The position numbers and the translations under genes were made by a program. The notes below the pieces were generated by a model. That model saw only the letters and a list, made by a program, of their open reading frames with translations. It made no database searches and had not been told where the DNA came from. Positions 7,997 to 62,632 of a DNA stretch of 64,000 nucleotides are shown here, in pieces. Every line of letters begins with the position of its first letter. Position 1 is the stretch's first letter. The DNA lies in the NCBI GenBank assembly GCA_951406725.2, contig OX597817.1:61504001-61568000 (forward strand), read 5' to 3'. The DNA is from Octopus vulgaris (taxonomy: Eukaryota).

Positions 7997-9246
7997 TTGG
8001 ACAAAAAAATGGAAACACCTTAAAATTTCAAATAAATTTATTTTAATAGGGAGTAGGACCGCCTTTGGCTGTAATTACAGCTTGAATTCTACGAGGTATG
8101 GACTCGTACAAAGTTTGAATTGTTTCCAAACGAATTTTTGTCCCTTCTTCAGCTAAAACAGTCTCCAGTTCTTGAAGTGATGATGATATCGACTCCTTAC
8201 TTGTTTTCCTAAAATGCACCATAAATGTTCAATAATATAGAGATCTGGGGACTGTGGTGGCCAGATAAGATGTTCAATTTCACTAGAATGTTCCTCATGC
8301 CATTCAGTAACAACTTTAGCAGTGTGAATTGGTGCATTATCATCCTGAAAGATTGCGTTTCCCTCCAGAAACAGTTCCGCAACCACAGGATGAATTTGAT
8401 CAGATAAAATGCTTAAATAGTCTCTTTATTCTGCCATGAAGGGAAATCATTGGGCCGGCAGATTACCAATATATAGTACCCAGATCATCACAGATCCTCC
8501 TCCATGTTCAACAATTGGAAGAAGGCAGTGTGGATCAGACGCTTCTTTTGGCTGTCTCCATACATATACTCGGCTGGTGGTTGGAAATGAGGTAAAGGAT
8601 GACTCGTCTGATAAAATAACATTCTTCCACTGCTCCAGGGACCAAATCTGTAGGTTTTTACTCCACTCTAAATGCTTTGCAATGTTTGTTTTTGGAAGTA
8701 GTGGTTTTTTTATTGTGTCCCTCCTGTGAAATATGGCTTTGTGCAGCTCCCGGGAACAGTTTTTGTGGAAACTGGGTTCTCTGGGTAGTCATTAAGCTTT
8801 GCAGTAATTAGGGACCTGTACTTATGTGATCCTTTCTAACAATTTGCATAAGAAACCGACGGTCCCTATCTGAAAGTTTTGGTTTTCTTCTGAAGTTTTG
8901 TTTCGATGAGGAGGTTTTTCCCTTTTTCTCAAAGGCTGTCATTACTTTCAAGACAATACTTCTTGACACACCAAACATTTCAACTGTTTTTGTTATGCTA
9001 GCACCTGCCATACGAGTACCAACAATTTGACCTCTTTGAAAGTCCAATAGATCTGTCATGTTAATGAATTTTAATTACCTTTTTCTGATGATATCTGAAA
9101 AGAAACAGCAATTTTAGCAAAAGATATTAAGCAACACTAATAATAAATCAAAAAACAAAAATAAACAAGATTTTGATGGTTTTATTGATATTTCAAAATT
9201 ATGATGCTATGATGCTAGGTGTTTCCATTATTTTGTCCAACCCCTG
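7997..9246 (-). mobile_element. Tc1 transposon, near full length, pseudogenised
   Basis: TIRs 'ttggacaaaa(a/t)aatggaaacacc'. Transposase pieces MTDLLDFQRGQIVG..., FQDDNAPIH, WPPQSPDLYIIEHLW. Same family as 26963-28217. Confidence 0.95.
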
Positions 9247-11177: not shown

Positions 11178-12008
11178 CACACATGCATAGATATAGATAT
11201 GGATATAGCGAGAGAGAGGGCGACACACACACACATATATATTCTCTCTCTGTCTCTTTCATTCCCTGTCCCCCTCCCTATCTCTCTAAACATATCTGCC
11301 TTTATCTCTTCCTTTCTCTTTTTCTCATCTTCTCTCACCCCCTTATTATCTCCTTGTCATGCTGTCATATTTCTTGATATCTTTTTTATTTTTTTTCTAA
11401 CCATATTTCTATCTAGTTATCCATGTGTGTAAGGCGGTGAGCTGGCAGAATCATTAGCACGACGGTCAAAATGCTTAGCTGCATTTCGTCCGTCTTTAAG
11501 GTCGATTTTGCCCGTCATTCTTTCGGGGTCAATAAACTAAGTACCAATTGTACGCTGCGGTTCTCTCACCCGAAATTGCTGGCCTTGTATCAGAATTTGA
11601 AACCGATATTAGTGATTGGCTCTCACTCGCCCATCGCCCGCTCAGAACAAATATAGGAGCTGAAGCATGAAGCAGCGATAAGAAACAAACCTTATGTTAG
11701 GTCGGATATTTTACTTATATATGTTTGTGTGTCTGTGTTTGTCTCCCCACCCCACCCCATCATCACTTCACAACCGAAGTTGGTGTGTTTACGTCCCAGT
11801 AACTTAGCGGTTCGGCAAAAGATACCGATAGAATAAGTACTATGCTTACAAAGAATAATTCCTGGAGTCGATTTGTTCGACTAAAGGCGGTGCTCTAAGA
11901 TGGCCACAGTCAAATGACTGAAACAAGCAAAAGTAATTTTTTGCCCTCGGTAAACTGCAGCGAAATTGCCTTTGGAAGTCAAACTATGTCTTAAACGTAT
12001 TTGGCCTA

Positions 12009-13665
12009 CGAGGATGGGCTTAAAAGGTCACAGGCTGGCTATGAAGGAGTGGTGCTAGAGCTGTGAACTTTTGCATGCATTTTTCTTAATTGCTGCATTG
12101 TTTCTGACATCTGCCTCTTCAGAGAAGACTACAAAAGTAACTAGTTGCGATTTCTTTTGCAAATGGACAAAATTTAGCATCGTAGTGTTATCAAGTACCT
12201 GCAGAAAAGGGGCTGACCCCATCAAGGGCATTCATGTTGATACGGCTGCCACATTGGGCGATGATGCTCCAGCTTTATCAACAGTGCGTAGGAGTGGCTG
12301 TGCGGTAAGTAGTTTACTTACGAAACACATGGTTCCGGGTTCAGTCCCACTGCGTGGCACCTTAGGCAAGTGTCTTCTACTATAGCCTCGGGCCGACCAA
12401 AGCCTTCTGAGTGGATTTGGTAGACGGAAACTGAAAGAAGCCCGTCGTATATATGTATATATGTATGTTTTTGTGTGCCTGTGTTTGTCCCCGCCCCCAA
12501 CATCGCTTGACAACTGATGCTGGTGTGTTTACGTCCTCGTAACTTAGCGGTTCGGCAAAAGATACCGGTAGAATAAGTACTAGGCTTCCAAAGAATAAGT
12601 ACTGGGGTCGATTTGCTCGACTAAAGGCGGTGCTCCAGCATGGCCACAGTAAAATGACTGAAACAAGTGACAGAGTGCAAAAGGGGTCAGCTGAATTTAG
12701 GTAAGCAAGGGATAGTCTTGAAGATGACCTATAGTCTGGATGTCCCGAAACTTCCACCTCTGGTGAAAACATTAATCGTGTCCACCATATTGTGATGGAT
12801 CACAGGTTATTGACTATAAATGAAATAGTGAATGCAATTAGAATATCCCGTGAGAGAGTTGAGAATATTCTTTACAGTGAACTTGGCATGACAAAGGTTT
12901 CTGCTCGGTGGTTACCACGTCTGGATGACACCTGATCGGTGGTTTCTGTTCGGTGGGTGCCTTGGTGAATGACACCTGATCAAAAAACGCACCGGGCTGA
13001 TCATATCCCTACAAAATCTTACATTGTTTGAGGCAGACCCAGCTAGTTTCTTTGAACGTTTCCTCACTCAGGATGAGTGGTGTATTCATTACTTTGAGTC
13101 ACCTGTTCCAAAGAAGGCCAAGGTCATTTCCTCTGCAGAAAAGGTGATGGCCCCACTTTCGGGGGATGCAAAAAGCACTGTGTTTGACTATCTTAAAAAG
13201 GGCTACACCATCAATGGAGAGTACTATGCCAGCTTGTTGAGGCAGTTACGAAAGATTATCAAGACCAAAACGCCCAGGAAAACTGACGAACGGGGTCTTG
13301 TTTCATGAAGTCAATGGTCCAACACAGACGTCCCTGGTTTCAATAATTGCTGTGGCTTTAAACTGGTTGACCACCAACCCTATTCTCCTAATTTGGCCCC
13401 ATCTGACTGTCATTTGTTCCCCAATATGAAAAATAAAACTCTTGGCTGGGAACCAGTACCGCAGTGATGAAGACATCATATCTGTTGTTGATGACGCTTT
13501 TGACTAACAGGATGAGAGCTTCTTCCCCAATAGGATCCAAGCACAGCAGCACTGATGGATGAAGTGTGTGGACTGCAAAGGGATTATGTTGAAAAAAAAA
13601 AACTCATTTTGTCACATTCCATGAGAGTATCTTGGTCAGCTTATGAACTTTTCAGCTGACCCTCG
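12009..13665 (+). mobile_element. Mariner transposon (decayed) interrupted by a SINE
   Basis: TA-flanked TIRs 'cgaggatgggcttaaaaggtca' / 'tgaacttttcagctgaccctcg'. Motifs KVSARWLPR, FLTQDEWCIHYF and PYSPNLAPSD. Confidence 0.9.
12285..12670 (+). mobile_element. SINE family A, full length, nested in mariner
   Basis: A-box/B-box head 'ggagtggctgtgcggtaag...ggttcagtccc', body and tail. The mariner sequence resumes after it. Confidence 0.9.
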
Positions 13666-21630: not shown

Positions 21631-22000
21631 TATTATGAAAAGCCTGAAGAAATAGATCAAACAATATTTGTTGGATGTTTCTTTTCTCTCACTACCAAAA
21701 GGATCAAACAGGTTTTTTTTTTTTTACATATTCAAAACTTTATTGAGGTTTTCGAGTCTTCTACTGTAGCCCCGGGTCGACGAGCATGTGTGTGCGCGCG
21801 CGTATTCTGTGTTAAATGAAGAAGGGGTGACGAGTGAAATTTTTTTATAAATCGATTCCCAGGCGTACGGAAACCCACTTTTTTTTTCCGTCGGGAGCTT
21901 GTATTAGACTATTTTCTGTAGCCAATATACGGTGAACATTCATAACCTTAAAGCTTATAATTATCATCATCATCATCCTCATCATTATTATTATTATTAT

Positions 22001-22610
22001 GGCGGCGAGCTGGCAGAAACGTTAGCACGCCGGGCGAAATGCGTAGCCGTATTTCGTCTGCCGTTACGTTCTGAGTTCAAATTCCGCCGAGGTCGACTTT
22101 GCCTTTCATCCTTTTGGGATCAATAAATTAAGTACCAGTGAAGCACTGGGGTCGATGTAATCGACTTAATCCGTTTGTCAGTCCTTGTTTGTCCTCTCTG
22201 TGTTTAGCCCCTTGTGGGTAGTAAAGAAATAGGTATTTCGTCTGTCTTCACGTTCTGAGTTCAAATTCCGCCGAGGTCGACTTTGCCTTTCATCCTTTCG
22301 GGATCAATAAATTAAGTACCAGTGAAGCACTGGGGTCGATGTAATCGACTTAATCCGTTTGTCAGTCCTTGTTTGTCTCCTCTGTGTTTAGCCCCTTGTG
22401 GGTAGTAAAGAAATAGGCATTTCGTCTGCCGCTACGTTCTGAGTTCAAATTCCGCCGAGGTCGACTTTGCCTTTCATCCTTTCGGAGTCGATTAAATAAG
22501 TACCAGTTACGCACTGGGGTCGATATAATCGACTTAATCCTTTTGTCCCCTCTGTCTGTATCCCCTTGTGGGCAGTAAAGAAATAGGTACTTCGCACTGG
22601 GGTCGATGTA
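22001..22610 (+). mobile_element. SINE family B (Meta-domain-like body), three units in tandem
   Basis: Head 'ggcggcgagctggcagaaacgttagc', body 'gcctttcatcctttcggggtcgataaa..agtacc', each unit ending 'ccccttgtgggYagtaaagaaata'. Confidence 0.9.
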
Positions 22611-24084: not shown

Positions 24085-26104
24085 CCCTTGAGTCCATGCA
24101 TTATCCGTCATGCACATTTTCAATTACAACCCTAACACTAACTTGAGACTTATAAAAAGAAAGCTTTATATTCCTCAGAAAGCATGAAGCAAGGATTGAC
24201 TAAAAGTGAGAAAACAAACAAGGACGTTTAGGACAAGCTTAACGAAAAATATTTTGGCCATGAGAAGGATTAAACGTTTTTTGTTTTTTTGGTGGCTGTG
24301 GTTCGGTGGTTGCCTTCATCTGTTAATAATTTTCGATATTTTTAAATTATGTTTCTGAAATTTGATGGTTGGTACAGAACTGTGGCCCAGTGACACTGAA
24401 AAAGTTTTCGTTTTTTACTATTATTAAAAAGAGTAATTTGACGCACCATGCGATCAAATGAACAGCAAATGCTCCTCTGATTAATGCCTGTATTTTTAAA
24501 TCATGCACACTTAGTTTATCATTCCTTCCTGGCAACTATAACGTTGCATAATCGCTTCCACCTTTATGTGAAGACGAAATATTTTTTTAACTTTAAAACA
24601 CATTCGAAAGAAAATAAGAAACTATAAAAAATGCTACGATTTTATAGATTTCTTGAAATGATGCCTTATCTCCTTTCATCTGAAGGGAAACTCCCAACTG
24701 CATGTATTACAACATCCTGTCCTTTATCAGATAATGTGCAAACAGATGTCTTTTATGCCGGCTTCATTTCTTGGCTTAGCAAAAGAACACCTGCTGTAGC
24801 AGTCGTCTCTTTTAGTCTCTGAATAAGGGAGATAACTATTTACAGGAGTATTCCTCTTATCAAACAGAATGACATGAAGCATCCATTATCCTCATGCCAA
24901 TCACTATCTTAACATGTAGCATATGGTCCCGCTTAGCACCGAGCCTCGCTAATAAATACGATTTGTTTGAACTTCACCAGAGACCGGTAACAGAACAAGC
25001 ATTGCCAGGTTTGATTTCATTATTTCAGCGAACGCTAGGAATAAACTGCTTGGCGGCAATTCTTTCAGCTTTACGCTTGGAGTTCAAATTCTGCTGCAAT
25101 TGACTTTGCCAAAATGCTTAGCGGCATTTTCTCCTGCTAAAGTGACATTCAAATTCCTTTGAGGCCCACTTTGCTTTTCATACTTTTGAAGTCGATAAAA
25201 TAATTATCTGATTAGCACTGAGGGCAATGAAATCGACTTGGCTCCTTCCCTAGAATTTGCTGACCTTGCGCCATTGACCAAAGAGGTAAAGGCAGGGAAA
25301 ACATCCAGGACAAGCTCACCTCTGTTTCCTTGATTTTCTGATGGATCTGCTGAGACTAACTCGGACAAAATTTTAGTGGCATTTCTGCGTTCAAATTCCA
25401 CCGAGGTCTTACTTTGTCTTTCATCCTTTGAGAATCGATCAAATAAAATACCGTTCAAGAACTTGGGGTCAATGTAGTCATCACCTCCCCACCCCCACCC
25501 AAATGTTGGCCTTGTGCCAGGATTAGAAATAATTATTTCAGAACGATAGATGATGGGGGTTCTCGTTGGTCCCTTAACTCTTCGATGGTTTTGTAGAGGC
25601 ATCATTGTGACATGCTCCAAGTCTGGCCATAACCGATTTCTTCCAGGAGAGACAAACGGACAAATAGAGAGTAAGAGGGAGAGAAAGACAAGAATCGAAT
25701 CCTGCACAGATTTGGTACTTCATGTCCTGCCGTGACCTTCTTGTGTGGCAGACTGAATCCTTTGAATTACAATCGATCCAGTGGGCTTCTGCACAGTTTC
25801 CATATTTCAAATTTCACAAACAAAGTTTAGGTTTACTGAAAATGACTCTTGCCCAAGATACCATGCCGTGGAGTCGAACCCAGCACCTCTTGATTTCAGA
25901 GCGAACTCTTCGGCCAGGTTGATGGTAGTATTAAATAAGAAAGAAACTGACTGATCCAAGTTTATTCTATCTTACCAGCATTCCGTACAGTTTCCATTTA
26001 CCGCCTGTCCACTCAGTTTCATTCAGACTGTTTGGGTCAATTCGCGGGTTTCACCAAAGCCAAATGCTGTAGGACAGAAGTAGGGGAACTGTCTGCTACT
26101 TACC

Positions 26105-26962: not shown

Positions 26963-28217
26963 CAGGGGTTGGACAAAATAATGGAAACACCTAGCATCAT
27001 ACCGCCATAATTATCTCTAAAACCGTCAAAAGCTTGTTTATTTTTATGTTTTTTGATTTATTATTAGTGTTGCTTAATATGCTTTGCTAAAATGACTGTT
27101 TCTTTTCGGATATCTTCAGAAAAAGATAATTAAAGTTCATTAACATGACAGATCTATTGGACTTTCAAAGAGGTCAAATTGTTGGTGCTTGTATGGCAGG
27201 AGCTAGCATAACAAAAACAGCTGAAATGTTTGGTGTATCATGAAGTATTGTCTCGAAAGTAATGACAGCCTTTGAGAAAGAGGGAAAAACCTCCTCGTCG
27301 AAACAAAACTCTGCAAGAAAACCAAAACTTTCAGATAGGGACCGTCGGACTCTTACGCGAATTGTGAGAAAGGATCACAAACGTACAGCTCCCAAATTAC
27401 TGCAGAGCTTAATGACCACCCAAGAACCCAGTTTCCACAAAAAATGTTCACTGGGAGCTGCATAAAGCTGGATTTCACAGGAGGGCTGCAATCAGAAAAC
27501 CACTACTTTCAAAAACAAACATTGCAAAGCGTTTAGAGTGGAGTAAAAAACCTACAGAATTGGTCCCTAGAGCAGTATAAGAATGTTATTTTCTCGGGCG
27601 ATTCATCCTTCACCTGATTTCCGACCACCAGCCGAGTATACGTGTGGAGACAGCCAAAAGAAGCATTTGACATAGACTGCCTTCTTCCAACTGTTAAACA
27701 TGGGGGAGGATGGATCTGTGATGCTCTGGTGGGCTATATCTTGGAAATCCGCTGACCCAATGGCTTCCTTTCACGGCAGAATTAATAGACTATTTAAGCA
27801 CTTTAGCTGATCAAATTCATCCGGAACTGTTTCCGGAGGGAAACGCAATCTTTCAGGATAATATTGTACCAATTCACACAGCTAAAGTTGTTACTGAATA
27901 GCACGAGGAATATTCAAGTGAAGTTGAACATCTTATCTGGCCACCACAGTCCCCAGATCTCAATATTATTGAACATTTTTGGTGCATTTTAGAAAAACAA
28001 GTAATGGGTCGATATCCTCCACCATCATCACTACAAGAACTGGAGACCGTTTTAGCTGAAGAAGGGACAAAAATTCTTTTGGAAGCAATTCAAACTATGT
28101 ACAAGTCCATACCTCGTAGAATTCAAGCTGTAATTACTGCCAAAAGCGCTCCTACTCCATATTAGAATTAATTTGTTTGAAATTTTAAGGTGTTTCCATT
28201 ATTTTGTCCAAACCCTG
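26963..28217 (+). mobile_element. Tc1 transposon, full length (~1.25 kb), pseudogenised
   Basis: TA-flanked TIRs 'caggggttggacaaaataatggaaacacc'. Transposase from about 27145 to 28164 with stops and frameshifts (WPPQSPDLNIIEH). Confidence 0.95.
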
Positions 28218-30451: not shown

Positions 30452-31842
30452 CCCCACCCCCCACATCGCTTGACAATCGTTGCTGGTGTGTTTACGTCCC
30501 CGTAACTTAGCGGTTCGGCAAAAGAGACCGGTAGAATAAGTACTAGGCTTACAAAGAATAAGTCCTGGGGTCGATTTGCTCGACTAAAAGGGGGTGCTCC
30601 AGCATGGCCACGGTCAACTGACTAAAACAAAAGAGAGTATATATATGTATATATATATTATAATAATATAATCTACATTTAAAAGAGATCGTAGTTGTCT
30701 CCCTTGCATCGATTCGTATTTAACATTTGAAGTTTTATCTTGTCTGCCTCCTTCCAGATATTCAGACATCACTATTTCTTAACAATGAAAGAAAAATTGT
30801 TTTAAGGTCGGAGGAAGAAAAATTATTTTTCTTTTCGACATTTAGTTACAAGTTCAACGTCTTCGAAAGTAATTTTTTTCTCTCTTTATCCTTCGAAGTC
30901 GATGAAATAAAGTAACTTCAGGTTTCCTTTTAACAATAACAATTATACATATTTTTTTTTAATCAAATCTTTCGGATTTGTTTTTATTTATTTATTTATT
31001 ACGGCTGCTTTTGTTTTCGATTTAAATATTACTAATGTTAAATTTTTTGCTATATAATTCAATCATTCTATGCACCCAGCACCAAAATATCCGCGACCTT
31101 TTAGCTACATTAGAAACAGTCGTTGCCGTCGCCGGCGGCAGCGAACATCATTATCACCTCCACCATCACCATCATTATCATCATCAACATCATCACAACC
31201 TCCACCACCACCACCATCACCATCATCATTTTTCTCCCCACCCCTCCCTAACTTGACAGAACTCTAACTGAGGAAGGACACCGACAGAGGAGGGGTGCCG
31301 TAGCGAACTCTCTGACCATAACTGCTGGACGTAGTGCTTAAAATTAGGGATCAAAGTGTTACAAAAATGGCTCACACTTGTCGATGGTTTGATTAGGGAA
31401 TCTGAAACTGAGGGATCCCGAACCGGTCCATCCACGACAATTTGCCCTTCTTGCAATATATCACAGAACTTTGAGGAAATAAAGCTGATTTTGGTGGCAC
31501 CCTGATGGAAATGAATCAGTTGGAAGCTTTCGATGGGGTTAATCATTATTACTTGATTAATCATACGTTCAAATTCCGCCGAGGTCAGCTTTTCACTTCA
31601 TCCTTTTGTGGTCGATAAGATAAGTACCAGTCGATCCACCAAAATTTCAACCCTTGTACCTACAACAGAAAGAATTATTGCTAAGTAACCGTCCGAAAAG
31701 CGACCTCATTCGATCCTGTTTTCAGAGACTGGATTGCTGCAATGCACGTTGGCATCCACTCGCTATACAGGGTAAACGGTCACTTTTCTAACCGTTTCGT
31801 CTCATTGTTTCAAATCGCCGATGATATTCCTTCTCGTCTCGC

Positions 31843-34270: not shown

Positions 34271-34301
<31 letters not shown>

Positions 34302-34440
34302 TGGGTCATCCCATAAATAATGCGGTTTTTTCAATCGCTTCGGAGGGGAACGGGACAAACTACTTGCATCAACTTGCTATGAAAGCAGGTAGTCATTTTA
34401 CTATGTACTTATTCTTAGCGCAAGTTTATTTTGCGAGGAT

Positions 34441-35812
34441 TGTTTTGTGCTGAGGAGTGTGTTGTGCTGAGGAGTGTGTTGTACTGAGGAGTGTGTTGTG
34501 CTGAGGAGTATGTTGTGATGAAGAGTGTGTTGTGCTGAGGAGTGTGTTGTGTTGAGGAGTGTGTTGTGCTGAGGAGTGTGTTGTGTTGAGGAGTGTGTTG
34601 TGTTGAGGAGTGTGTTGTGCTGAGGAGTGTGTTGTGTTGAGGAGTGTGTTGTGCTGAGGAGTGTGTTGTGCTGAGGAGTGTGTTGTGTTGAGGAGTGTGT
34701 TGTGCTGAGGAGTGTGTTGTGCTGAGGAGTGTGTTGTGCTGAGGAGTGTGTTGTGCTGAGGAGTGTGTTGTGCTGAGGAGTGTGTTGTGTTGAGGAGTGT
34801 GTTGTGCTGAGGAGTGTGTTGTGTTGAGGAATGTGTTGTATTGAGGAGTGTGTTGTGCTGAGGAGTGTGTTGTGCTGAGGAGTGTGTTGTGCTGAGGAGT
34901 GTGTTGTGTTGAGGAGTGTGTTGTGCTGAGGAGTGTGTTGTGCTGAGGAGTGTGTTGTGTTGAGGAGTGTGTTGTGCTGAGGAGTGTGTTGTGTTGAGGA
35001 GTGTGTTGTGCTGAGGAGTGTGTTGTGTTGAGGAGTGTGTTGTGCTGAGGAGTGTGTTGTGCTGAGGAGTGTGTTGTGCTGAGGAGTGTGTTGTGCTGAG
35101 GAGTGTGTTGTGTTGAGGAGTGTGTTGTGTTGAGGAGTGTGTTGTGTTGAGGAGTGTGTTGTGCTGAGGAGTGTGTTGTGCTGAGGAGTGTGTTGTGCTG
35201 AGGAGTGCGTTGTGCTGAGGAGTGTGTTGTGCTGAGGAGTGTGTTGTGTTGAGGAATGTGTTGTGTTGAGGAGTGTGTTGTGTTGAGGAGTGTGTTGTGC
35301 TGAGGAGTGTGTTGTGTTGAGGAGTGTGTTGTGCTGAGGAGTGTGTTGTGTTGAGGAGTGTGTTGTGTTGAGGAGTGTGTTGTGTTGAGGAGTGTGTTGT
35401 GCTGAGGAGTGTGTTGTGCTGAGGAGTGTGTTGTGTTGAGGAGTGTGTTGTGCTGAGGAGTGTGTTTTGCTGAGGAGTGTGTTGTGTTGAGGAGTGTGTT
35501 GTGCTGAGGAGTGTGTTGTGCTGAGCAGTGTGTTGTGTTGAGGAGTGTGTTGTGTTGAGGAGTGTGTTGTGCTGAAGAGTGTGTTGTGTTGAGGAGTGTG
35601 TTGTGTTGAGGACTGTGTTGTGCTGAAGAGTGTGTTGTGTTGAGGAGTGTGTTGTGCTGAGGAGTGTGTTGTGTTGAGGAGTGTGTTGTGTTGAGGAGTG
35701 TGTTGTGCTGAGGAGTGTATTGTGTTGAGGAGTGTGTTGTGTTGAGGAGTGTGTTGTGCTGAGGAGTGTGTTGTGTTGAGGAGTGTGTTGTGTTGAGGAG
35801 TGTGTTGTGTTG
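34441..35812 (+). repeat. 17-bp minisatellite (GAGGAGTGTGTTGTGYT) x ~80
   Basis: Homogeneous tandem array varying mainly at one C/T position. The minus-strand ORFs repeat every 17 aa (3 units). Confidence 0.97.
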
Positions 35813-35880
35813 TGTTGCTTTGCAGCAGTTTTTTGTGTGTAGCGCCATCTTTCTTCGTTGGCCTGTGACGGAGGAGCGAA

Positions 35881-37298
35881 ATGAATAGTTATGCGGCAGC
35901 AACGGGAAGTCGGGGTTCTGTCGTCCCGGATACGCTGAAACAGAATGAACAGCATTGTAATTTGGACCTGCTCCAGAAATATCAATATATGGTAAAGAGG
36001 GAGGGGCCGAACACAAAGTTGACCCCACCAGAGGATGACAAGGTGAAGAGGGAAAGCAGAGTGATAATTTATAGAACTTTTTCAAAATAAAGTAAGAGGC
36101 TGGAGAATGCAATGCAGGAGGAGGTGAACGAATGTCTGGAAAAATTGAAGGAAAGTTTTATACCAGAGGGAAAAAATACGTTTCAGCGGCAGTTACATTT
36201 GTCTCAGAAGAGGAGACAAAAAGACATTCCACTAAGGTGTTACATGGAGAAAAATGGACACTCCTGCCCACTTACCTGGGTAAACGAGTTACCAGGATTA
36301 GGGTAGGGAGGATCCCACCTAGAATCGATCCAGATAGGATAATAGCGGCAATTTTCACCGCAAGAGAGAAAGGAGACAACGAGGAAGTGAAAGTAATAAT
36401 GATAAACCGGACCCAACAATCAAATTAGTGGAGGTACGGGGTAGAGATGATTTTTATGGTGAACCAAAAAGAGTACGAAGGTATACCAGAAACATTGGAG
36501 CTGCCCAATGAGGACAAACTAGATGTAATGTTAGAGGGGAGGCTTCTGAAGTATCACGAGTGTGGAGAGAAGGGACATATTAGAAGGTGTCCACAAAAAA
36601 ACGATGGAAACCTCAGAAATAGAAACACAAGAAGGCGTAATGGAAGTGGAGAGGAGGACCCAGGAAGTGGAACGGAACAGAGAGGTCATGGAGACCGAAA
36701 CAAGGAAGAGAGAGAGAGGAGGAGGAGTTCACCCCCTAAAACGGAGCAACAACAGAAGAAACATAAAGCACAAGAGGAAGTGGACCAACCAACAACGACT
36801 AGTAGAAGCAGTACGCCATTGGGATCACCGAAGAAAAATGCCACAAGCAGAACAGCAACATCAAGCAAACATACGAACTTAGAATCACACAAACATACAG
36901 ACTCACAGACACATAAGCACACAGACATACTGACTCACGGAAATAGAGACAGACACATGATAATACAGAGTTACAGAAACGTAAAAGCGCAGACACACAG
37001 GCACAACACGCAGACACACAAGACGTACACAGAAACGAAATTTGTTTTATTGACACACCAGACGACCCAAAAGCTGGAGATGAAAATAACGAAAATGAAA
37101 GGGATTGTGAGGGTGAATCTTTCTGAGGCATATGATAAGGATATGAGATGTATTCTAATGGAGAAAGGAAAATATAGAACTCTGAAAGAAGCTTTTCCTT
37201 CAGATGTAAATCCACTGGGGCCCGAGGTGAGTATTGAATCCAGTGATCCAGTTGTGAATTATGAAGACATTAAAAGTGACATAAAATGGTTAAGTTGA
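35881..37298 (+). pseudogene. Tx1/L1-like ORF1 (Gag-like, zinc knuckle), disrupted
   Basis: Starts MNSYAAAT. Contains LPTYLGKRVTRIRVGRIPP and IPETLEL...LEGRLLKYHECGEKGHIRRCP (decayed CCHC). Stops at 36088 and 36426 and at least one frameshift near 36165. Confidence 0.8.
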
Positions 37299-38619
37299 GA
37301 TTATTTTTAAAGAACTGTTAAAGACTCTTTGTTTGAAATAATTGAAATCATGTAATCATCCCGGAGTGGAGCCGGGGTAACCGTTTTACCTTCATTGTAA
37401 AATTTCATTTTATTCATTTTTCATGTGCTAATTGTCCCCGCATGTATATTTGTCCCCTCTATGTTGGCCCCTTGTGGGCAATAAAAAAAAATCAACTATT
37501 CTTAGTGCAAGTTTTGAAGAGTACAGTTCGATTTTAACGGTTATTTTCTTCAAAGCTATAATGGAAGTGACAAAGGAGCATATTAGGCATATTTTGCTTT
37601 ATGAGTTCAATAAGGGCAACGATGCAAATGAAAGTGCGAGGAATATTAATGCAGTATATGGGGATCGGACAATAAGCATAAGCCAGTGTCAACGGTGGTT
37701 CTAGAAATTCCGAGCCGGAAACTACAGCCTAGAAGACAAGCTTCGTCCTGGAAGATCTGTAGAGCAGGATGAGGACGTCCTGTGAACCCTGATAGCACAA
37801 AATCTCATTGTAACTGTTGGGAAACTAGCAGAGAAGCTTGATCAGTCAATCATTCATCGACACCTGCGGGGCATCAGAAGAAAAGCCAGCAAATTGGGTC
37901 AATGGGTTCCTCACAAACTTTCTTTGTCTAATCGTGTGCAGAGTGTGAATGTGTGCTCTTCTTTGTCTCATGAATGAACCTTTTTTGGACCGAATAGTGA
38001 CTGGTGATGAGAAATAGAATGTCAAGCGCCGAAGACAGTAGATAGAGAAAGGAGAAACACCGGCACCACAGGCTAAAGAAGGCCTTCACCAATGCAAGGT
38101 GTTGTTATCTGTTTGGTGAGATATGAAAGGTTTTGTCCACTTTGAATTTTGAAACCCAAACCAAACGGTAACAAAGGAGATATAATCTTTTCTACTCTAG
38201 GCACAAGCCCCGAAATTTTGGGGGAGGGGCCAGTCGATTAGAATGACCCCAGTACGCGACTGGTACTTAATTTATCGACCCCGAAAGGATGAAAGGCAAA
38301 GTCGACCTCGGTCACATACAGCGAGGATGACATTCCAAAGGCTGGAGCAGTTTGAAAGGGAAACGATGCCACCCACCATATTCGCCAGACATTTCCCCAT
38401 CTGATTATCATTTATTCCGCAGTCTTCAAAACCATTTAGACGGATTAAAAAATATGAATTCTGTAGACGAGGTCAGAACAGTACTAGAGGAGTATATTTC
38501 GTCGTGAATTTTGGAAGAGGAGCCTTGCAAGTCTACCAGATAGATGGAAATAAAAGAAGTATTTTTAAAAAAAACCGTATTACATATATGTATATATATA
38601 TATAAGAGTACATACGCCG

Positions 38620-42397: not shown

Positions 42398-42795
42398 ATC
42401 TTTTCTACTCTAGGCACAAGGCCCGAAATCTTTGGGAGGGGTCCAGTCGATTATATCGACCCCAGTTCGCAACTGGTACTTAATTTATTGATCCCGAAAG
42501 GATGAAAGACAAAGTCGACCTCAGTGGAATTTGAACTCAGAACGTAAAGACAGACGAAATACCTATTTCTTTACTGCCTACAAGGAGTTAAACACAGAAA
42601 GGACAAACAAGGACAGACAAGTGGATCAAGTCGATTATATCGACTCCAGTGCGTAACTGGTACTTATTTAATCGACTCCGAAAGGATGAAAGGCAAAGTC
42701 GACCTCGGCGGAATTTGAACTCAGAACGTAACGGCAGACGAAATACGGCTACGCATTTCGCCCGGCGTGCTAACAATTCTGCTAAGCTCGCCGCC
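42398..42795 (-). mobile_element. SINE family B dimer
   Basis: Unit 1 ends '...ggcagtaaagaaata'. Headless unit 2 ends 'ggccttgtgcctagagtagaaaaga'. A monomer lies at 44005-44230(-). Confidence 0.9.
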
Positions 42796-43413: not shown

Positions 43414-45716
43414 AAAAGAGTGGGTGGTTGACGTCTGTTGAAAATGTCAACAATTTACATCGGATAAAATGTTTATATCTACGCATGCACGCACGTATAC
43501 ACATACCTATACACACACGTTTACAGACACACACACACACACACAATTATGTCTGTGTGAATTATCTACACGCGCAGGTGTGGCTATGTGGTAAAGAGTT
43601 TGTTTCCCAATCACATGGTTCCAGGTTCAATTCGACTGCGTGGCACCTTGCGCAATTATAGCCTCGGTTCGACCAAAGCTTTGTGAGTGGATTTGACAGA
43701 CGGAAACTGACAGAAGTTTGTCGTTTATTTATGTAAATAGCTATGTGTGTGTGAGTGAGGTTTTTGTGTGTGTGTATCTGTCCTCCCACCGTCGCTTGAC
43801 AACTGATGTTGGTGTGTAAAGTAGCGGTTCGGCAAAAGGTACCGATAGAATAAGTACTAGGCTTACAAAGAATAAGTCCTGCGGTCGATTTCTTCAGCTA
43901 AAAACCCTTTAAGTCGGTGCTCCAGCATGGCCGCAGTCCAGTGATTGAAACAAGTAAAAGAATGGAATAGGCAGACAGACAGACAGACAGATAGACAGAC
44001 AGATATATTTCTTTACTGCCCACAAAGGGCTAAACATAGAGGGAACAAACAAGGACAAAGGGATTAAGTCGATTACATCGACCCCAGTGCGAAACTGATA
44101 CTTTATTTATCGACCCCGAAAGGATGAAAGGCAAAGTTGACCTCGGCAGAATTTGAACTCAGAACGTAACGACAGACGAAATACCACTAAACATTTCGCC
44201 CGGTGCATTTCCACTAAGCATTTCGCCGCCTTGATAGACAGACAGATAGACAGGCAGGTAGGCCCGCAGACATACAGACAGACTGACAAACAGAGATAGG
44301 TAGATAGGTAGGTAGGTAGGTAGGTAGGTAGGTAGGTAGGTAGGTAGGTAGGTAGGTAGGTAGGTAGATAGATAGATAGATAGATAGATACATACATACA
44401 TACATACATACATACATACATACATGCATACATGCATGCATACATGCATACATACATACATACATACATACATACATACATACATACATACATACATACA
44501 TAGTTGAACAGACACACTGATAGATACACGTGTATGTAGGCGGATTGCTTGATAGTTCCCTCCACGTACATTGCCTATACGCATGTACGTGTGGGTAACT
44601 ATATCCCCATATATACGTATATGCAGGGAATATGCAATTTTCGGCGGAGCTGTACCTTGTCGCATTCGTTGTCACGCTGAATCTCCCTGAGAACTAACTT
44701 TAAGGGTACTTTAAAGGTATGTGGAGTACTCATCCAGTTGCACATTAATTTTCATCGAATCATCTGGAACATTCATCACCGACGGAAAGCCAGATGTTTG
44801 TTTGATAGTTTGTGTATGTGTGTGTTTATGTATGTATGTGTGTGTACTTAAGTACGTATGCATATATGTATGTATGAATGTACGAGTGTATGTGTGTGTT
44901 TATGTATGTATGTGTGTGTAAAGTACGTATGCATATATGTATGTATGAATGTACGAGTGCATGTGTGTTGTTCTGTAATGGCCGCCACCCCACTCGTGGC
45001 TGTAGTTGTTGCCGCTCTTATTGGTGCTTTTAAAGCCCCTGGAATGTTACGGGTCAGCGGCATACGACTGCATTATCAGACGGTTTTGGAAGAAGTGAAC
45101 GATTGGTGATAACATACCGACAACGGCTTTCAGATATCCGCTTCAGCATCCACGTAGGGGAGGGGAAAAGGCAGATGCTTTTTTTCGACAAGTTTAGGCA
45201 CACGTAATCGTGATAAGCGGGGCGCGCGTGTTCGCCAGCACGTCCCCTTCGGCGTGTGGATGACGATATGAGCGTGCGTACGTGCGTACTACGAATATGC
45301 AGATGTATGTAATACACACGCACACAAATGTGTAAGCGTATGTGTGTGTGTGTGTGTGTGTGTACGTGTGATTGTGGCTTTTATTATAGTATTAAACACC
45401 ACTACTACCACCACCACCATCACCATCTTCTTGGCGCAAAGTGAGATAGATGCACTTCTGGGTAAAAAATATCAGCAACAATGGGTAAAAAAAACTATGA
45501 CTTCATGTATGAATGTCAAGAGAAATCTAATAAGATCTTCACATACCATGAATAATCTATATTGTCAGATTAGACATTTCCTTTCCTTCCACTATTATTT
45601 CAATTAACAGGACAACTATTAATTATATGGGGAGTTTTGTAGCTCTGGTCTTCCTCTACAACTTTCGTTTATCGTTTTGAAATTTAAATAAATTTTACCT
45701 TTTTAGACATATGAAC

Positions 45717-51944: not shown

Positions 51945-52520
51945 TGTTTCAGCTTTAAAGCTGCGGTCATGCTGGGGCGCCACCGTTGGCTGTGCTATAC
52001 CATTATTTGAAACCTCCTCTGATATATGGCATATGGTGAACGAGGAGGGCTGTTGCCCTCATTTGTGTTTCCTGCCGTAAGGTAGGCTCATCTGGAACTC
52101 TTGACAGGAGGAAATCCAGTTTTGTTTTCATGACACCAACATCCACACCATACAGGTCTCTCGGGCATTTTAGAAGTATATTGAAGAGCTGTGGGCTCTT
52201 GAAACCCAAGCTGCTGCAGTATCTGGTCCTGTATTTTGATGGTGATACTGAGATCTTTGGCACTATGCAGTGACGCCCCGTTCTGCTGTTTCTGTAACTT
52301 TCAATGCCAAAGTTTGGTACAAGGCCTTCCAAGATTTTCCAGATGTATATCACTGCATATCTTTCCCGCCTTAGTTCTAGGGAGAAGAGTTTTAACTCTT
52401 TCAGCTTTTCCCACAAGTCGATATGTTGCATTGAGACGATTGCTTCGAGTTCCGCCGTTAATCTTATACTGTGTAGTGGTCATATTTGGGAGCAGTAGTC
52501 CAAGTGGCTGAGGACGTATG
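51945..52520 (-). mobile_element. CR1/L2-group LINE 3' end
   Basis: LKLFSLELRRERYAVIYIWKILEGLVPN...PQLFN...VPDEP. Tail 'cagcatgaccgcagctttaaagctgaaacaa'. Confidence 0.9.
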
Positions 52521-56670: not shown

Positions 56671-58399
56671 TGTTATGTAATCATCACAACAAACATGAAC
56701 AATCAACGTTGCCCATTGTCTCCCTTGATACAAGGACATTCAGTAAGTTTCCCGACACAACAAATACCTTGTACAACAATGGCAGTCTAATAAAGTATCT
56801 CGTATCGTTAACACGTTTTTTCACTCTCTCTCATTTTCTTAATCTTTCATACTAAGTACTCAATACTTCCTTTAATACTCAATACATTATATATATAACA
56901 ACAACATGGTGTCAGAATACTAAAAGAACCCAAAATACAGAAACCAAAAGAAAAAAGAGGTTGAAATCATACTTCAAAGACGAAATGGAAAATTTACCGC
57001 ATCCAAAAGACCTAGACTTTAATCAGGAAAATTTCGCCGTAGCATGGAAAAAGTGGAAAAAAGAATTCAATCTCTTTTTGATAGCAACAGAAAGTGACAT
57101 GAAGCCAGACAAAGTAAAAACTTCAATGTTTTTAACTTGCATCGGTTCCAATGGCCGAGACATCCATTCCACTCTGGATTTCGATTCACCCGACGAAGAA
57201 ATGAACCTTCAAACAGTAATCGAAAAATTCGATGCATATTGTGAACCCAGGAAAAACATAACTTTCCTGAGACACAAATTCTTCACATGTGGACAAGCGG
57301 AACATCAAAAATTCGATGAGTACGTGTTAGAGTTGCGCCAAAAGGCACAACAGTACGAATTCGGCAACCTGACAGACAGTCTCACCAAAGATATTCTGAT
57401 ATGTGGAATCAGAGACATGAGATTAAGAGAAAGATTATTGAGAGAACCAAATTTAGACTTACAAAAAACAATTCAAGCAGGTCAGAGTGCAGAGCAAACA
57501 CGACTCCAATCAAGGATGTTAAATGCCTCATCCGAAACAAGAGATAACGAAATCTCGAGGGTATATAGTCAACACGACAGAAAAGGCGCCAAAACTCAAA
57601 TAACTCGCCATATGCAATCCAGACATCAAAACGAACAAGGTGGAAGTGACAGAAAGCCCGCGAAGTTTCAAGCGCCAAGTCAACACTACGTCACTAACTG
57701 TCACTATTGTGTTTATAATCACAAAAGAAATAAATGCCCAGCATTTCACAAGACATGTGAAAAATGCAAGAAACAAGGACACTATGCAAAAATGTGCAAA
57801 TCAAGAAAATTTGTACATAAAGTAGAGATACATACCGACGATGAATCAGATGACGATACACATGCACTCGAAATGATCACTGCAAATAATTCCCGCGTGC
57901 ACAAAATCGAAAAGTTCAAGACTCCAAAAGACATTTGGACGGTCGAACTAAAAGTGAACAACTCGAATGTAACATTTAAAATTGATACTGGAGCAGACGT
58001 AACCGTACTGCCATTCAGAGAATATAAAAATATAATTCCAAAATAGCACAACTACAGAATTCAACACTACAAAATAATAAAACCACAAAAAGTGGACGAC
58101 GAATAATTATTCCCTGTAGATACAGATAAAAAAATAAATAAATAAATAAATAAATAAATAAAAAGGAAGATGTTATGTAATCATCACAACAAACATGAAC
58201 AATCAACGTTGCCCATTGTCTCCCTTGATACAAGGACATTCAGTAAGTTTCCCGCCACAACAAATACCAACGGCAGTCTAATAAAGTATCTCGTATCGTT
58301 AACACGTTTTTTCAGTCTCTCTCATTTTCTTAATCTTTCATACTAAGTACTCACTACTTCCTTTAATACTCAATACATTATATATATATAACAACAACA
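56671..58399 (+). mobile_element. Non-autonomous Ty3/Gypsy (Mag-clade) LTR retrotransposon
   Basis: LTRs 56671-56906 and 58171-58399 (TG...CA), 5-bp TSD GTCAT, primer-binding site TGGTGTCAGAA (56907-56917, tRNA-Leu-like), polypurine tract AAAAGGAAGA (58161-58170). Confidence 0.97.
56985..58046 (+). CDS. gag: Gag (capsid plus two zinc knuckles) fused to the N-terminal half of the aspartic protease
   Basis: Open frame with WKKWKKEF, CHYCVYNHKRNKC and CEKCKKQGHYAKMC (double knuckle typical of Mag), then FKIDTGADVTVLP. Confidence 0.9.
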   Translation: MENLPHPKDLDFNQENFAVAWKKWKKEFNLFLIATESDMKPDKVKTSMFLTCIGSNGRDIHSTLDFDSPDEEMNLQTVIEKFDAYCEPRKNITFLRHKFFTCGQAEHQKFDEYVLELRQKAQQYEFGNLTDSLTKDILICGIRDMRLRERLLREPNLDLQKTIQAGQSAEQTRLQSRMLNASSETRDNEISRVYSQHDRKGAKTQITRHMQSRHQNEQGGSDRKPAKFQAPSQHYVTNCHYCVYNHKRNKCPAFHKTCEKCKKQGHYAKMCKSRKFVHKVEIHTDDESDDDTHALEMITANNSRVHKIEKFKTPKDIWTVELKVNNSNVTFKIDTGADVTVLPFREYKNIIPK

Positions 58400-59157: not shown

Positions 59158-59410
59158 ACGATTGATTTCTTTATTGCCCACAGGAGGTTAAACATAGAGG
59201 GAACATACACAATATGGGGACAAAAAAAATTAAAAAACAAATGATAGGATGAAAAATGAAAGCGATGTCAGCCGTGCCATCGAGCAACATCGCTTACTTG
59301 TCTTTCTTTCAATCGTACTCTAACATATCTACCCCGTACTATTCCTTTAGTTCTTTGTAATTTATTACTGGAGGCAGCCTGGTGTGATCGAGTTCAATAC
59401 CTGGCTCAAC
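59158..59410 (-). mobile_element. 3' fragment of a non-LTR element with the same tail as the ORF1-only element
   Basis: Minus strand 'ttgtcccc...gttccctctatgtttaacctcctgtgggcaataaagaaatcaatc' matches 37432-37496. Confidence 0.65.
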
Positions 59411-59693
59411 CACGAAAAAATAGTGATTGGGCTGGAGATTGAGCTTATTATTAAAAAAAGATAATTACTAATTATCTTTTTTTAATAATTTTGATATATA
59501 TTTAAAATAATATAAATTAATTAATCTTATGTATTGGGTTAAGTTTTTCATTGTATGATTTGCCTAATAGTGGTTTTATCTCTAATTTAATATAATATAA
59601 TATTTTACTATAAAATTGGATTCAATCCTAAATCTGATTTTTCCCTGTAAGTTTGGATTTATTCCCTAATATTTGATTATATATATATATGTA

Positions 59694-59753
<60 letters not shown>

Positions 59754-59761
<8 letters not shown>

Positions 59762-60096
59762 ATGAATTTCTTGTGTTTGACGGCATGAGCTGTCTTTTTT
59801 TATATATAACTTTTTTTTGATAAGGTTCATTTCAGGAACTGAAACATGTTATAATGTATATATAAAAATTAAAAATTGTATAATATAGTAGCATTTTCGA
59901 ACTTCATTTTTTACAAATATATATATATATATATATGTAAAAAATGAAGTTCGAAAATGCTGCTATATTATACAATTTTTAATTTTTATATATACATTAT
60001 AACATGTTTCAGTTCCTGAAATGAACCTTATCAAAAAAAGTTATATATAAAAAAAGACAGCTCATGCCGTCAAACACAAGAAATTCATTTATAATA
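59754..60096. repeat. Near-perfect palindrome (~161-bp arms) centred on (TA)n, formed by the PLE 3' end
   Basis: 59754-59915 is the reverse complement of 59936-60096, with one substitution and one homopolymer length difference. Confidence 0.97.
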
Positions 60097-60406
60097 CACA
60101 ACGGAGTCAGACATCTTAGAGTTCATGTATAGTTGATATATAGTTTGAAGTAAGTTCATTCATGCTATATGTTCAAAGTGTTCGATGCAGTGGCCCACGG
60201 TGGCGATACGTATTCAATACAAAAAACAGATCAAAGTGGTGGAAAGCAGTCAATACAGAAGATTGATGTTTCCGAAAGAGCGAGGAATTCATTTTTACCT
60301 TAAGCAATTGTGATGACCCATGGTGGGTGTTCGCTGGGTGGTTCTAGTGAGTCTTGTGAATTGCTCGGTTTTATAATGCCTGTTAGGTGGTCAGTCCAGC
60401 GTAGCG

Positions 60407-60740
60407 TGACGTCATCAACGTTTTGACCAATCGTTTCGTTAGGTGGCTTTAGTCAAGCAGATCGGGACGTCATCATCATTTTGACCAATCGCTGTATTAT
60501 AACTGCCTCTTGTCTGTTTCCTGTTTTGACCAGTCGCTTCGTTAGTCAAGCAGAACGGGACGTCATCCAGATTCTGCCCAATCATGACTTATAGCTACAT
60601 TAGATCTGTCCCCTGTCTGTACTTGTTAGGTGACTAGTCAAGCAGAAAAGGACGTCATCAATATTCTGACTAATGACTGTCCCCTGTTTGTATCCTGTCC
60701 ATTCTAGCAGAACTAGACGTCATCAACTTGTTGACCAATC
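60407..60740. promoter_or_regulatory. Array of five CRE/ATF + CCAAT composite sites
   Basis: GACGTCATC(A/C) at 60408, 60466, 60559, 60651 and 60716, each followed after exactly 9 nt by CCAAT (one copy CTAAT). Confidence 0.6.
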
Positions 60741-60909
60741 AGAATCGGGTATGACCCTTAGCTGTATCGTATGTATCAGGGTCAGATTTGCACGAAAGAA
60801 TTTTTTTCCCTTTTTTACTAAGGCATATTTCCGTCAGTGCGAGTGTCTGTTTAAGGTAGCGGCCGTGGTGGAATTTTGCTTCTCCTTTTCGGAGGGCTTA
60901 TCTTTTGTT

Positions 60910-62062
60910 TTAGTATTCCTGGCCCAGGGTGTTTAAACTTGGTCTAAATTTTTTTATGAAATATAGTTCTTTATTTTGGCGTTGTGTGAAGGTTGCGTTG
61001 TCACTGAATTTATAGAGCGGGTTAGTTGTAAATTTCGGATTTACATTTCCAGCACATCTACCTATGTGTCCGCTGACCGGTATTTTGCGGTAATCAGGGT
61101 TTCTAATTTGTGATTTATGCACCGCCATCCTGTTACGTAAGCTATTTTTTGTATGGCCTATATACTGCCTATTGCAGCCTGCGCATGTTATGACGTAAAT
61201 TAAGTTTTCTGATGCGCAGGTGAAGTTTGTTCTAATGGTGAACTGGTGGCCTTGTTCCAGTATAAATTCTGATCCTTCTTTCAAGATGACACAGATTCCG
61301 CAGTTGGGCCTTCCACATTTTCTAACTGCTGGTTTTGTGGTTGATGTTGAGTGCAGTGTAGCTTGGGTTAAAATCCTTTTCAAGGATTTTGGTTGCCGTT
61401 TACTTTTAATGATGGTGTGTGTTTCGAGGATCCGGTTCATCTTTGGGTCTCCCTTTAGTAGGGCTGTGCTTTGTAGTATGGTGTTGAAGGCCTCATTGTT
61501 GAGTGGGTTGTGTGTAGAGATGTAGGGAAGGGTTTTTAATTGTTCTTTCTTTTTTGGTTTTGTTTGTCTCAGGTCTTCTATACTTAATTTAAGTACCCGT
61601 TGGATTGCACTGTCTATTAGGGGCTGTGGATAGTTTCTATTTGTGAGTGTGGTTCTAAGTTCCTGGAGACGTGTGTGTCGGGTGTTTGTGTCTGATATTA
61701 TGGTGCAAATCCTTCTAGCTAAACAAAAAGGGACATTCATTCTAGTGTGTCGTGGGTGGCATGAATCAAAGGGTAGGTACTGTTTAGAGTCTGTCGGTTT
61801 ATAGTAGATATCTGTCTCTATTTTGTTGCCGGTTTTCTTAATGAGGATGTCTAAAAATGGTAATTCTTTTTCGTTGTGGTCCATCGTGAATTGTATATTG
61901 TCATTTATTCCATTTAATAGTATTTTAAATTCCTCAAGTTTCTCTATACCTTTGTCCCAGATGATGAAACAGTCATCGAGGTATCTTTTCCAGTTGTTAT
62001 GGATATAGGTGGCGAAGGTGTTTCCATATTTCTCGAGTGTTATCCGGTATAGTATTTTCTCT

Positions 62063-62067
<5 letters not shown>
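60910..62067 (-). CDS. PLE reverse transcriptase C-terminal half + Cys linker + GIY-YIG endonuclease (partial, uninterrupted)
   Basis: WKRYLDDCF, LPFLD, YYKPT, SCHP, CGRPNCGIC and NLIYVITCAGCNRQYIGHT. The N-terminal IYIY run in the ORF track is microsatellite. Confidence 0.93.
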
Positions 62068-62122
<55 letters not shown>

Positions 62123-62632
62123 TGTATGAACATTTAATGTAGTTTTAGAGTCAAGTTTTGGCTACTATTTCCAGTGTGAAAGAAGAGCAGTTTCTGTCGT
62201 CGTTATCTTGATATTTCTGCACAAGTTAGGGGGCCCCCAAGGATCCGTTTTGTCGCTTATTTATTATAAAAAAAACTATATCATAGCATAAAAAATAGAT
62301 GCATTTTGTAGATAATTCTTTTTTATTGGCTTAGAGCGGATACTGACCTTGATAAAATAAATTATTACATACTTATTACAGAAACATGGTTATTACGACC
62401 TTCAAAAACTTTTTTAGGAAGAACTGTTTAAAAAAAAACATATACGAAATATAAAGGTATACATGAATACACAACCACCCACTAATGTATGTATGTATGT
62501 ATGTATGTATGTATGTATGTATGTATGTATGTATGTATGTATGTATGTATGTATGTATGTATGTGACCGCGTGTGTACCATTGGCGATTTTTTTCCTCCG
62601 TCTTCCCTTCTCTGGATCTTTCCTTTTCCTTT

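Follow-up and report, generated by a model that had tools for sequence, protein, structure and literature searches.

An ORF1-only retroelement inserted into a mariner

The window, by which we mean the whole 64-kb stretch of Octopus vulgaris DNA that was analysed, contains a non-LTR retroelement of 3069 bp (34428–37496, plus strand) that has an ORF1 and is devoid of an ORF2. It is flanked by a target site duplication (TSD) of 18 bp, the left copy of which (34410–34427, plus) is identical to the right one (37497–37514, plus) in 17 of 18 positions, and none of 300 shuffles matched as well. The left TSD is followed by a tandem array (34435–35809, plus), a broken type I ORF1 (35881–37298, plus) and, from the ORF1 stop to the 3' end of the element, about 200 nt made up of about 130 nt of 3' UTR and a conserved tail (37432–37496, plus). 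These 200 nt leave no room for an ORF2, and a six-frame scan of the element for short reverse transcriptase (RT) and endonuclease motifs returned one spurious antisense match and none on the sense strand. With an encoded ORF1-type protein and no ORF2 the element is of the same kind as HAL1, HeT-A and Ag-Sponge, and the 18-bp TSD together with a second copy that appears to be 5'-truncated points to its having been mobilised in one piece, through target-primed reverse transcription.

The 5' array was resolved by Tandem Repeats Finder into 80.9 copies of a 17-bp unit with 94% matches, two unit variants accounting for 67 of 80 units, and likely acts as an internal promoter or 5' UTR. For a minisatellite beside a decayed ORF1 its length (1.4 kb) and homogeneity (94%) are unusual, which may be due to expansion after the insertion or to an assembly effect. 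The ORF1 itself is interrupted by stops at 36088–36090 and 36426–36428 and by a frameshift near 36140–36160, as seen from its translation and from the tiling of homologs in tblastn. Two RRMs are predicted in it, along with a degenerate CCHC knuckle, a low-complexity linker and a conserved C-terminal domain.

The element has inserted into the leader of a degenerate mariner, a single insertion being too few to show targeting. The 5' end of this mariner (left terminal repeat and leader, 34301–34427, plus) stands directly before the left TSD and its remainder (37515–38590, plus) contains a degenerate transposase starting from an ATG at 37561 (Pfam HTH_48, E 2.9e-23), with only a weak match to the right terminal inverted repeat near 38569–38587. 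A SINE fragment on the minus strand with a different tail interrupts this remainder at about 38180–38312. Further mariner/Tc1 transposase remnants are found at 4134–4358 (minus), 8156–8425 (minus), 12973–13305 (plus) and 27902–28162 (plus).

The ORF1 protein family

Pfam did not recognise the decayed ORF1 of the window. An exhaustive protein search identified 123 representative homologs at E ≤ 1e-3 (best E 7e-61), of which P0093 and P0108 are translations of microsatellites and were left out, and the core profile matched 112 of 124 stored proteins. Among 25 homologs that were scanned for domains 15 match a zinc-knuckle family at E ≤ 0.05, none has an RT or endonuclease domain, and neither a PHD domain nor extra knuckles were reported. 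The structural model of homolog P0006 (pLDDT 78.7) matches tandem-RRM proteins, the best RRM giving Z 9.1 and an rmsd of 2.2 over 78 residues. Language-model look-alikes of P0006 and P0124, to be read as leads only, are eukaryotic CCHC proteins including ZCCHC3-type RBD clusters (0.90–0.91). We assume the latter to be linked to the Tx1 ORF1, a statement that was not found in the literature. Judged by its homologs and the P0006 model, the ORF is a type I LINE ORF1 with RRM and CCHC modules.

For a phylogenetic tree we used the 34 of 124 proteins that cover at least 125 core columns. It shows a separation into a long group with four of the 34 rows, including proteins of 771–861 aa, and a diverse short group with the other 30, these row counts partly reflecting decayed copies. 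The closest relatives of the window ORF1 belong to the short group (support 100/100). A branch of 1.42 (support 100/100) lies between both groups, which share 23% identity. We take the long type to be the ORF1 of octopus L1-Tx1 elements; as the short group is far from it, the parent of the element may not be the long-ORF1 lineage. The C-terminal 110 aa form a conserved domain without a Pfam match, compared between P0001, P0002, P0017, P0027 and P0079 on the one hand and P0066, P0094 and P0124 on the other, and short and long groups align only loosely in it.

A 3' tail in common with SINEs

A sequence-only reading of the locus had proposed that the element shares its tail with a SINE, and this match is confirmed. 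The segment from 37449 to 37489/92 is 84% identical to 44049–44005 (minus) over 45 nt (E 6e-8), 83% identical to 22542–22583, 22188–22229 and 22372–22413 over 42 nt (E 2.5e-6), and 78% identical to 59223–59166 (minus) over 59 nt. Scored against the remainder of the window it reaches 50 at best, and dinucleotide shuffles gave a mean of 24.2 and a maximum of 33, with 0 of 200 reaching 50. The three tails named by that reading do match one another, its count being too low: a profile search finds seven tails in the window, of which five belong to SINE units, with three at 22 kb and one each at 42.6 kb and 44 kb, and two to sequence that is not SINE, at 37.4 kb and, on the minus strand, 59.2 kb. 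Likewise, the tail of 37432–37496 is common to element and SINE only in its part from 37449 to 37489 (about 41–45 nt), while 37432–37448 is a better match to the copy at 59 kb than to the SINE tails.

The tail of the element contains AATAAA and ends in TCAAC and not in poly(A). Its A run was considered as a terminal poly(A) and rejected, as the other six copies have AAAGAAAT at that place and both non-SINE tails run on with TCAA(T)C behind it; a terminal poly(A) is absent from all seven tails. AATAAA occurs in both ORF1-type tails and AGTAAA in all five SINE tails, a difference that would fit transcription by Pol II and Pol III, respectively. In the 44-column core each of the ORF1-type tails is identical to the five SINE tails at 33–37 positions, and to the other at 34. 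Over 65 nt the two ORF1-type tails are more alike (51 of 67 positions, 76%) than either is to the SINE tails, the 37-kb tail reaching 59–67% with four of them and the 59-kb tail 64–73%.

The core identity of 33–37 of 44 to SINE tails might be taken to mean that the tail at 37450 is a separate, later and 5'-truncated SINE insertion, a point which we tested. However, one 18-bp TSD brackets the whole 3.07 kb, the right copy pairing with a left flank 3 kb away, and a SINE body is absent upstream of the tail, where 192 of 300 and 154 of 300 shuffles score as high as the real sequence. The same arrangement is moreover found in the second element at 59 kb. On the grounds of the TSD and the missing SINE body the tail belongs to the ORF1-only element, and a separate insertion has next to no probability.

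The SINE at 21999–22590 (plus) is composed of a tRNA-like head with A and B boxes and three tandem body-plus-tail units with a period of 184, which end in the three 22-kb tails given above. The A/B-box-like motifs near 22003–22085 were read by eye; for this head ARAGORN predicted 0 tRNA genes and Rfam gave no tRNA match. The SINE presumably resembles the octopus OK/OR SINEs. A two-unit SINE is located at 42400–42795 (minus), where unit 1 ends in the shared tail (42607–42562) and precedes unit 2 with a different tail. The third one, at 44005–44231 (minus), is a single unit ending in the shared tail (44049–44005), and its TSD is ambiguous because it sits within a tetranucleotide microsatellite. 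The TSDs at the 22-kb SINE fall in microsatellites as well, and none is clear at the 42-kb and 38-kb SINEs.

One and the same SINE body also occurs with a second, unrelated tail at 42445–42400 (minus) and 38232–38180 (minus), and older variants lie near 25480–25540, 25240–25280, 31632–31675 and 11547–11610. The tail thus is a swappable module, and the second one suggests a second LINE partner. In the tandem SINEs the units restart at one head position right after the shared tail (22233 and 22417, plus; 42562, minus), which could go back to a single multimeric master copy or to a SINE that inserted repeatedly into its own head.

A second copy and the conservation of the tail

The second element (59160–59404, minus) appears to be 5'-truncated and comprises the last 21 or so ORF1 codons, about 115 nt of 3' UTR and the same tail. 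There is no SINE upstream of this tail, where a stretch translates to a motif resembling the C-terminus of the ORF1 family. With the ORF1 C-terminal profile in six frames of the window the best non-self match is 59404–59342 (6.7 bits, E 0.18), which is weak alone and yet appears in the expected register, the distance from the stop to the tail landmark being 161 nt compared to 179 nt in the 37-kb element. The DNA similarity upstream of the tail between both copies was matched by 2 of 300 shuffles, and no clear TSD was seen at the 59-kb copy. It likely represents another ORF1-type subfamily. As two diverged elements both run directly from the ORF1 into the tail, an ORF1-only architecture that is inherited seems more plausible than one deletion, and we regard such a family as highly probable given the common layout of the two window copies; the 123 homologs are matches at the protein level only. 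If this is true, it would be a family that annotation based on the RT misses.

A comparison of both copies shows that the tail is selectively conserved. In contrast to its 76% identity, the adjoining sequence is at shuffle level, with 66 of 135 identical positions in the proximal 3' UTR (shuffle mean 0.45, maximum 0.53) and 31 of 68 in the last 21 ORF1 codons (shuffle mean 0.46, maximum 0.54). This favours selection on the tail, which is conserved between two likely ORF1-type subfamilies and the SINE, as well as an ORF1-only architecture that is inherited. Such a pattern is what sequence-specific 3' recognition predicts and is the best available evidence that an RT reads the terminal sequence, and we hold recognition of the tail by its sequence to be likely.

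Many stringent tails carry a hairpin, and folding of the aligned tails had been proposed to uncover a conserved stem-loop, for which we obtained no support. All six tails that were folded gave z between −0.82 and +0.59 against shuffles, none of them significant, and RNAalifold on the tails returned three pairs at −2.36 kcal/mol without covariation. The only hairpin common to the tails, at 37463–37475 in the 37-kb element, has 3–4 bp, with pairing in 24 of 28 cells and 0 compensatory changes, for which seven sequences offer little power. Of the longer 3' regions, that of the 59-kb copy folds better than shuffles (z −2.03) and that of the 37-kb copy does not (z +0.92), and hence this is not a feature of both.

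A different origin of the similarity would be a transfer of the tail from one family to another through template switching or recombination, with a SINE or a LINE as the source, in which case the exchange would be recent, the similarity would owe nothing to selection for recognition, and the RT could be relaxed. The SINE body indeed swaps its tails, the two ORF1-type copies have an identity close to background upstream of the tail, and no conserved RNA structure was found, all of which is compatible with an exchange. However, AATAAA, the upstream 17-nt block and the terminal TCAA are common to the ORF1-type tails and missing from the SINE tails, and over 65 nt the ORF1-type tails resemble each other more (76%) than the SINE tails (59–73%). 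Repeated capture of exactly the terminal block would in itself suggest selection, and overall we regard such an exchange as improbable.

Search for the autonomous partner

Within the 64-kb window no autonomous LINE ends in the tail, all seven tails being assigned to SINE or ORF1-type sequence. Pfam detected neither an RT nor an APE domain in 96 of the 104 window ORFs; three of the remaining eight were scanned separately and five overlap the ORF1 of the element. A word-indexed protein search with the ORF1 core gave 0 of 48 candidates. Fusions of ORF1 and ORF2 were looked for in two weak tests: a search for longer proteins (1508–4305 aa) yielded 0 of 8000 candidates, and at 598–2000 aa 3 of 8000 were obtained, all of ORF1 length and none with an RT or endonuclease domain listed. 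Scans of the prokaryotic GTDB resulted in 188 pattern matches to P0124, 0 of which were confirmed, and in four matches to the tail motif, which we took as chance since they are confined to the motif and show no SINE or ORF1 homology.

A Penelope-like ORF with RT and GIY-YIG at 60913–62133 was rejected as partner, since its end precedes the 59-kb copy by about 1.5 kb and this copy has its own ORF1-like end. The fragment of the Penelope-like element (60910–62133, minus) encodes the C-terminal part of the RT together with GIY-YIG (E 6.8e-7). Repeats were noted by eye at about 59440–60800, namely an inverted duplication near 59700–60100 and imperfect direct repeats at 60400–60760. A Gypsy-like gag-protease ORF of 396 aa (56856–58046, plus) with a zinc knuckle and an aspartyl protease, both at weak E-values, is cut off before the RT. 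Finally, by eye we take a 158-aa ORF without a Pfam hit (52003–52479, minus) to resemble the C-terminal part of a CR1-type ORF2; the shared tail is missing from its end.

Proposed mechanism and identity of the partner

As the same tail is present at both 3' ends, the ORF1-only element and the SINE likely borrow one enzyme. On balance we lean towards an explanation in which both are copied in trans by the RT of one putative autonomous LINE, probably of the Tx1 clade, that reads the 45–65 nt tail and not poly(A). The ORF1-only elements would have arisen from a LINE by loss of ORF2 and would be transcribed from the 5' array. Their ORF1 protein would coat its own RNA and may co-assemble with proteins of the autonomous element, as has been proposed for HeT-A, HAL1 and Ag-Sponge. 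The ORF2 protein of the partner would then bind the tail, nick the target and prime reverse transcription, with a duplication of about 18 bp and frequently a 5' truncation as the outcome. The SINE would have acquired its tail by module swapping and would use the same enzyme.

The sequence-only reading had described this as a three-tier parasitism, which is overstated if meant as a chain, since no positive evidence makes the SINE dependent on the ORF1-only element; a single RT with two parallel parasites is the simpler description. In a true third tier the SINE would have taken its tail from the ORF1-only family and would use the ORF1 protein of this family, itself dependent on an autonomous RT. 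It is true that the only non-SINE carriers of the tail in the window are ORF1-type elements and that diversity appears to be much greater in the short ORF1 group than in the long one (30 versus 4 of 34 tree rows), although these counts are partly due to decayed copies. The SINE tails are, however, equally distant from both ORF1-type tails (33–37 of 44 each in the 44-column core), and an L1 with a disrupted ORF1 still mobilises SINEs (PMC5203782), so that a third tier appears very improbable.

Coming back to two parallel parasites of a single RT, this RT can with fair probability be assigned to the Tx1 clade. The label is based on the ORF1 type, the long TSD, the mariner target and the presence of L1-Tx1 among the recently active octopus LINEs. 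L1/Tx1-type endonucleases typically leave a TSD of 18 bp, those of CR1/L2 less so. The type I ORF1 expected of a Tx1 element is present, a feature that is necessary at most and not diagnostic, and for the preference of many Tx1 families for multicopy target sequences one insertion in a mariner leader and SINE copies in microsatellites are too few sites. RRM/CCHC ORF1s of non-mammalian animals are consistent with Tx1 (PMC5203782), and the recently active octopus LINEs comprise L1-Tx1 (13 families, 421 insertions), RTE, Dong-R4, CR1, Hero and R2 (PMC13282606). As ORF1s with RRM and CCHC occur in several clades, the Tx1 identity remains inferred: type I ORF1s, which can pass from one lineage to another, are known from I, Jockey, R1, Tad1, plant L1, L2 and some CR1 elements (PMC4120745).

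The same architecture could carry the tail of an ordinary stringent-type LINE from another clade such as I/Nimb, L2 or CR1. The TSD length, the homologs scanned without a PHD domain or extra knuckles, and the ZCCHC3-type look-alikes with their presumed link to Tx1 all speak against such a clade, whereas the non-poly(A) end fits I/Nimb, L2 and CR1. It is also in line with this alternative that type I ORF1s are found in I, Jockey, R1, Tad1 and subgroups of L2 and CR1 (PMC4120745) and that the SINE partners so far known from molluscs are CR1, CR1-Zenon, L2 and Nimb (PMC11481361). We consider it unlikely; if it were true, the ORF1-only family would resemble Ag-Sponge or HeT-A and the surprise of a Tx1 partner would be gone.

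Relation to known systems

ORF1-only derivatives of LINEs, borrowing of tails by SINEs, stringent L1-clade elements and SINEs mobilised by Tx1 are each already published. HeT-A from Jockey, HAL1 from L1 and Ag-Sponge from CR1 are established ORF1-only derivatives (PMC5786205; PMC5753468), and the accessible text of both sources names no example derived from Tx1. The octopus element shares with these three a single ORF1-type gene, the lack of an RT, a 3' end of the LINE type and the need for an autonomous partner. It differs from them in its RRM-RRM-CCHC ORF1 with an own C-terminal domain, its 1.4-kb 5' minisatellite, its non-poly(A) end and the tail shared with a SINE.

The sharing of tails between SINEs and LINEs is a general rule (PMC3747384). 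That a stringent RT from the L1 group would be exceptional, as the sequence-only reading had assumed, has to be softened in view of the stringent L1-clade pairs from maize (ZmSINE2/3 with LINE1-1_ZM) and Chlamydomonas (SINEX-3_CR with L1-1_CR); a Tx1 partner is not among the entries of Table 1 in this source (PMC3747384). As in such pairs, about 45 nt of conserved 3' sequence are common to a SINE and a longer retroelement. Unlike there, the sharing partner in the octopus is itself non-autonomous, and a stem-loop with compensatory changes was not found in the seven tails.

There are Tx1 families that have mariners as their target and mobilise SINEs (PMC4494074). Crocodilian Tx1-Mar is thought to mobilise SINEU on the basis of target preference and not of a common tail, SINEU ending in poly(A), and a LINE sharing the 3' end of SINEU-1 was not found there, though Tx1 is the proposed partner (PMC4494074). 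Both systems have the insertion into a mariner and the inferred mobilisation of a SINE by machinery of the Tx1 clade in common; the link in the octopus is a shared tail, with a single mariner insertion, whereas in crocodilians it is the target preference. In bivalves the HCD SINEs occur in tandem arrays, and their tails are exchanged between the partners CR1, CR1-Zenon, L2 and Nimb (PMC11481361). The octopus SINE is similar to them with respect to a single body with alternative tails and tandem units with a truncated head. The bivalve partners are different, Tx1 not being mentioned in the main text of this source (PMC11481361). Further background is given in PMC4758252, PMC8967140, PMC9115989, PMC5753468 and PMC3531059.

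The combination of these features, this tail or a Tx1-derived ORF1-only family was not found in the literature, and Repbase or Dfam may hold these families. The tail motifs are absent from the searched supplements of PMC9115989 (three readable files) and PMC10294476 (12 of 33 files).

Conclusion

In summary, an ORF1-only retroelement of O. vulgaris has its 3' tail in common with a SINE. With a CR1, L2 or Nimb partner this would be an ordinary new SINE/LINE pair along with a new ORF1-only family. With a Tx1 partner it would add to the L1 group an animal example in which the 3' end is recognised by its sequence, and would bear on the question whether the poly(A)-only recognition of mammalian L1 is derived, as proposed in PMC3747384. 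A serious but still tentative possibility, to which we give slightly less credit than to the mechanism itself, is an old and diverse Tx1-derived radiation of ORF1-only elements that depends together with a major SINE family on one Tx1 RT reading a short, non-poly(A) and weakly structured 3' sequence. If true, this would add a tail-sharing Tx1/SINE partnership as well as a Tx1 counterpart of HAL1 and HeT-A, with three passengers competing for one enzyme, and three natural substrates with one conserved 45-nt block would offer a ready test of what the RT reads. It would also name the engine of an abundant SINE in a genome of which SINEs make up 11.6% (PMC13282606).
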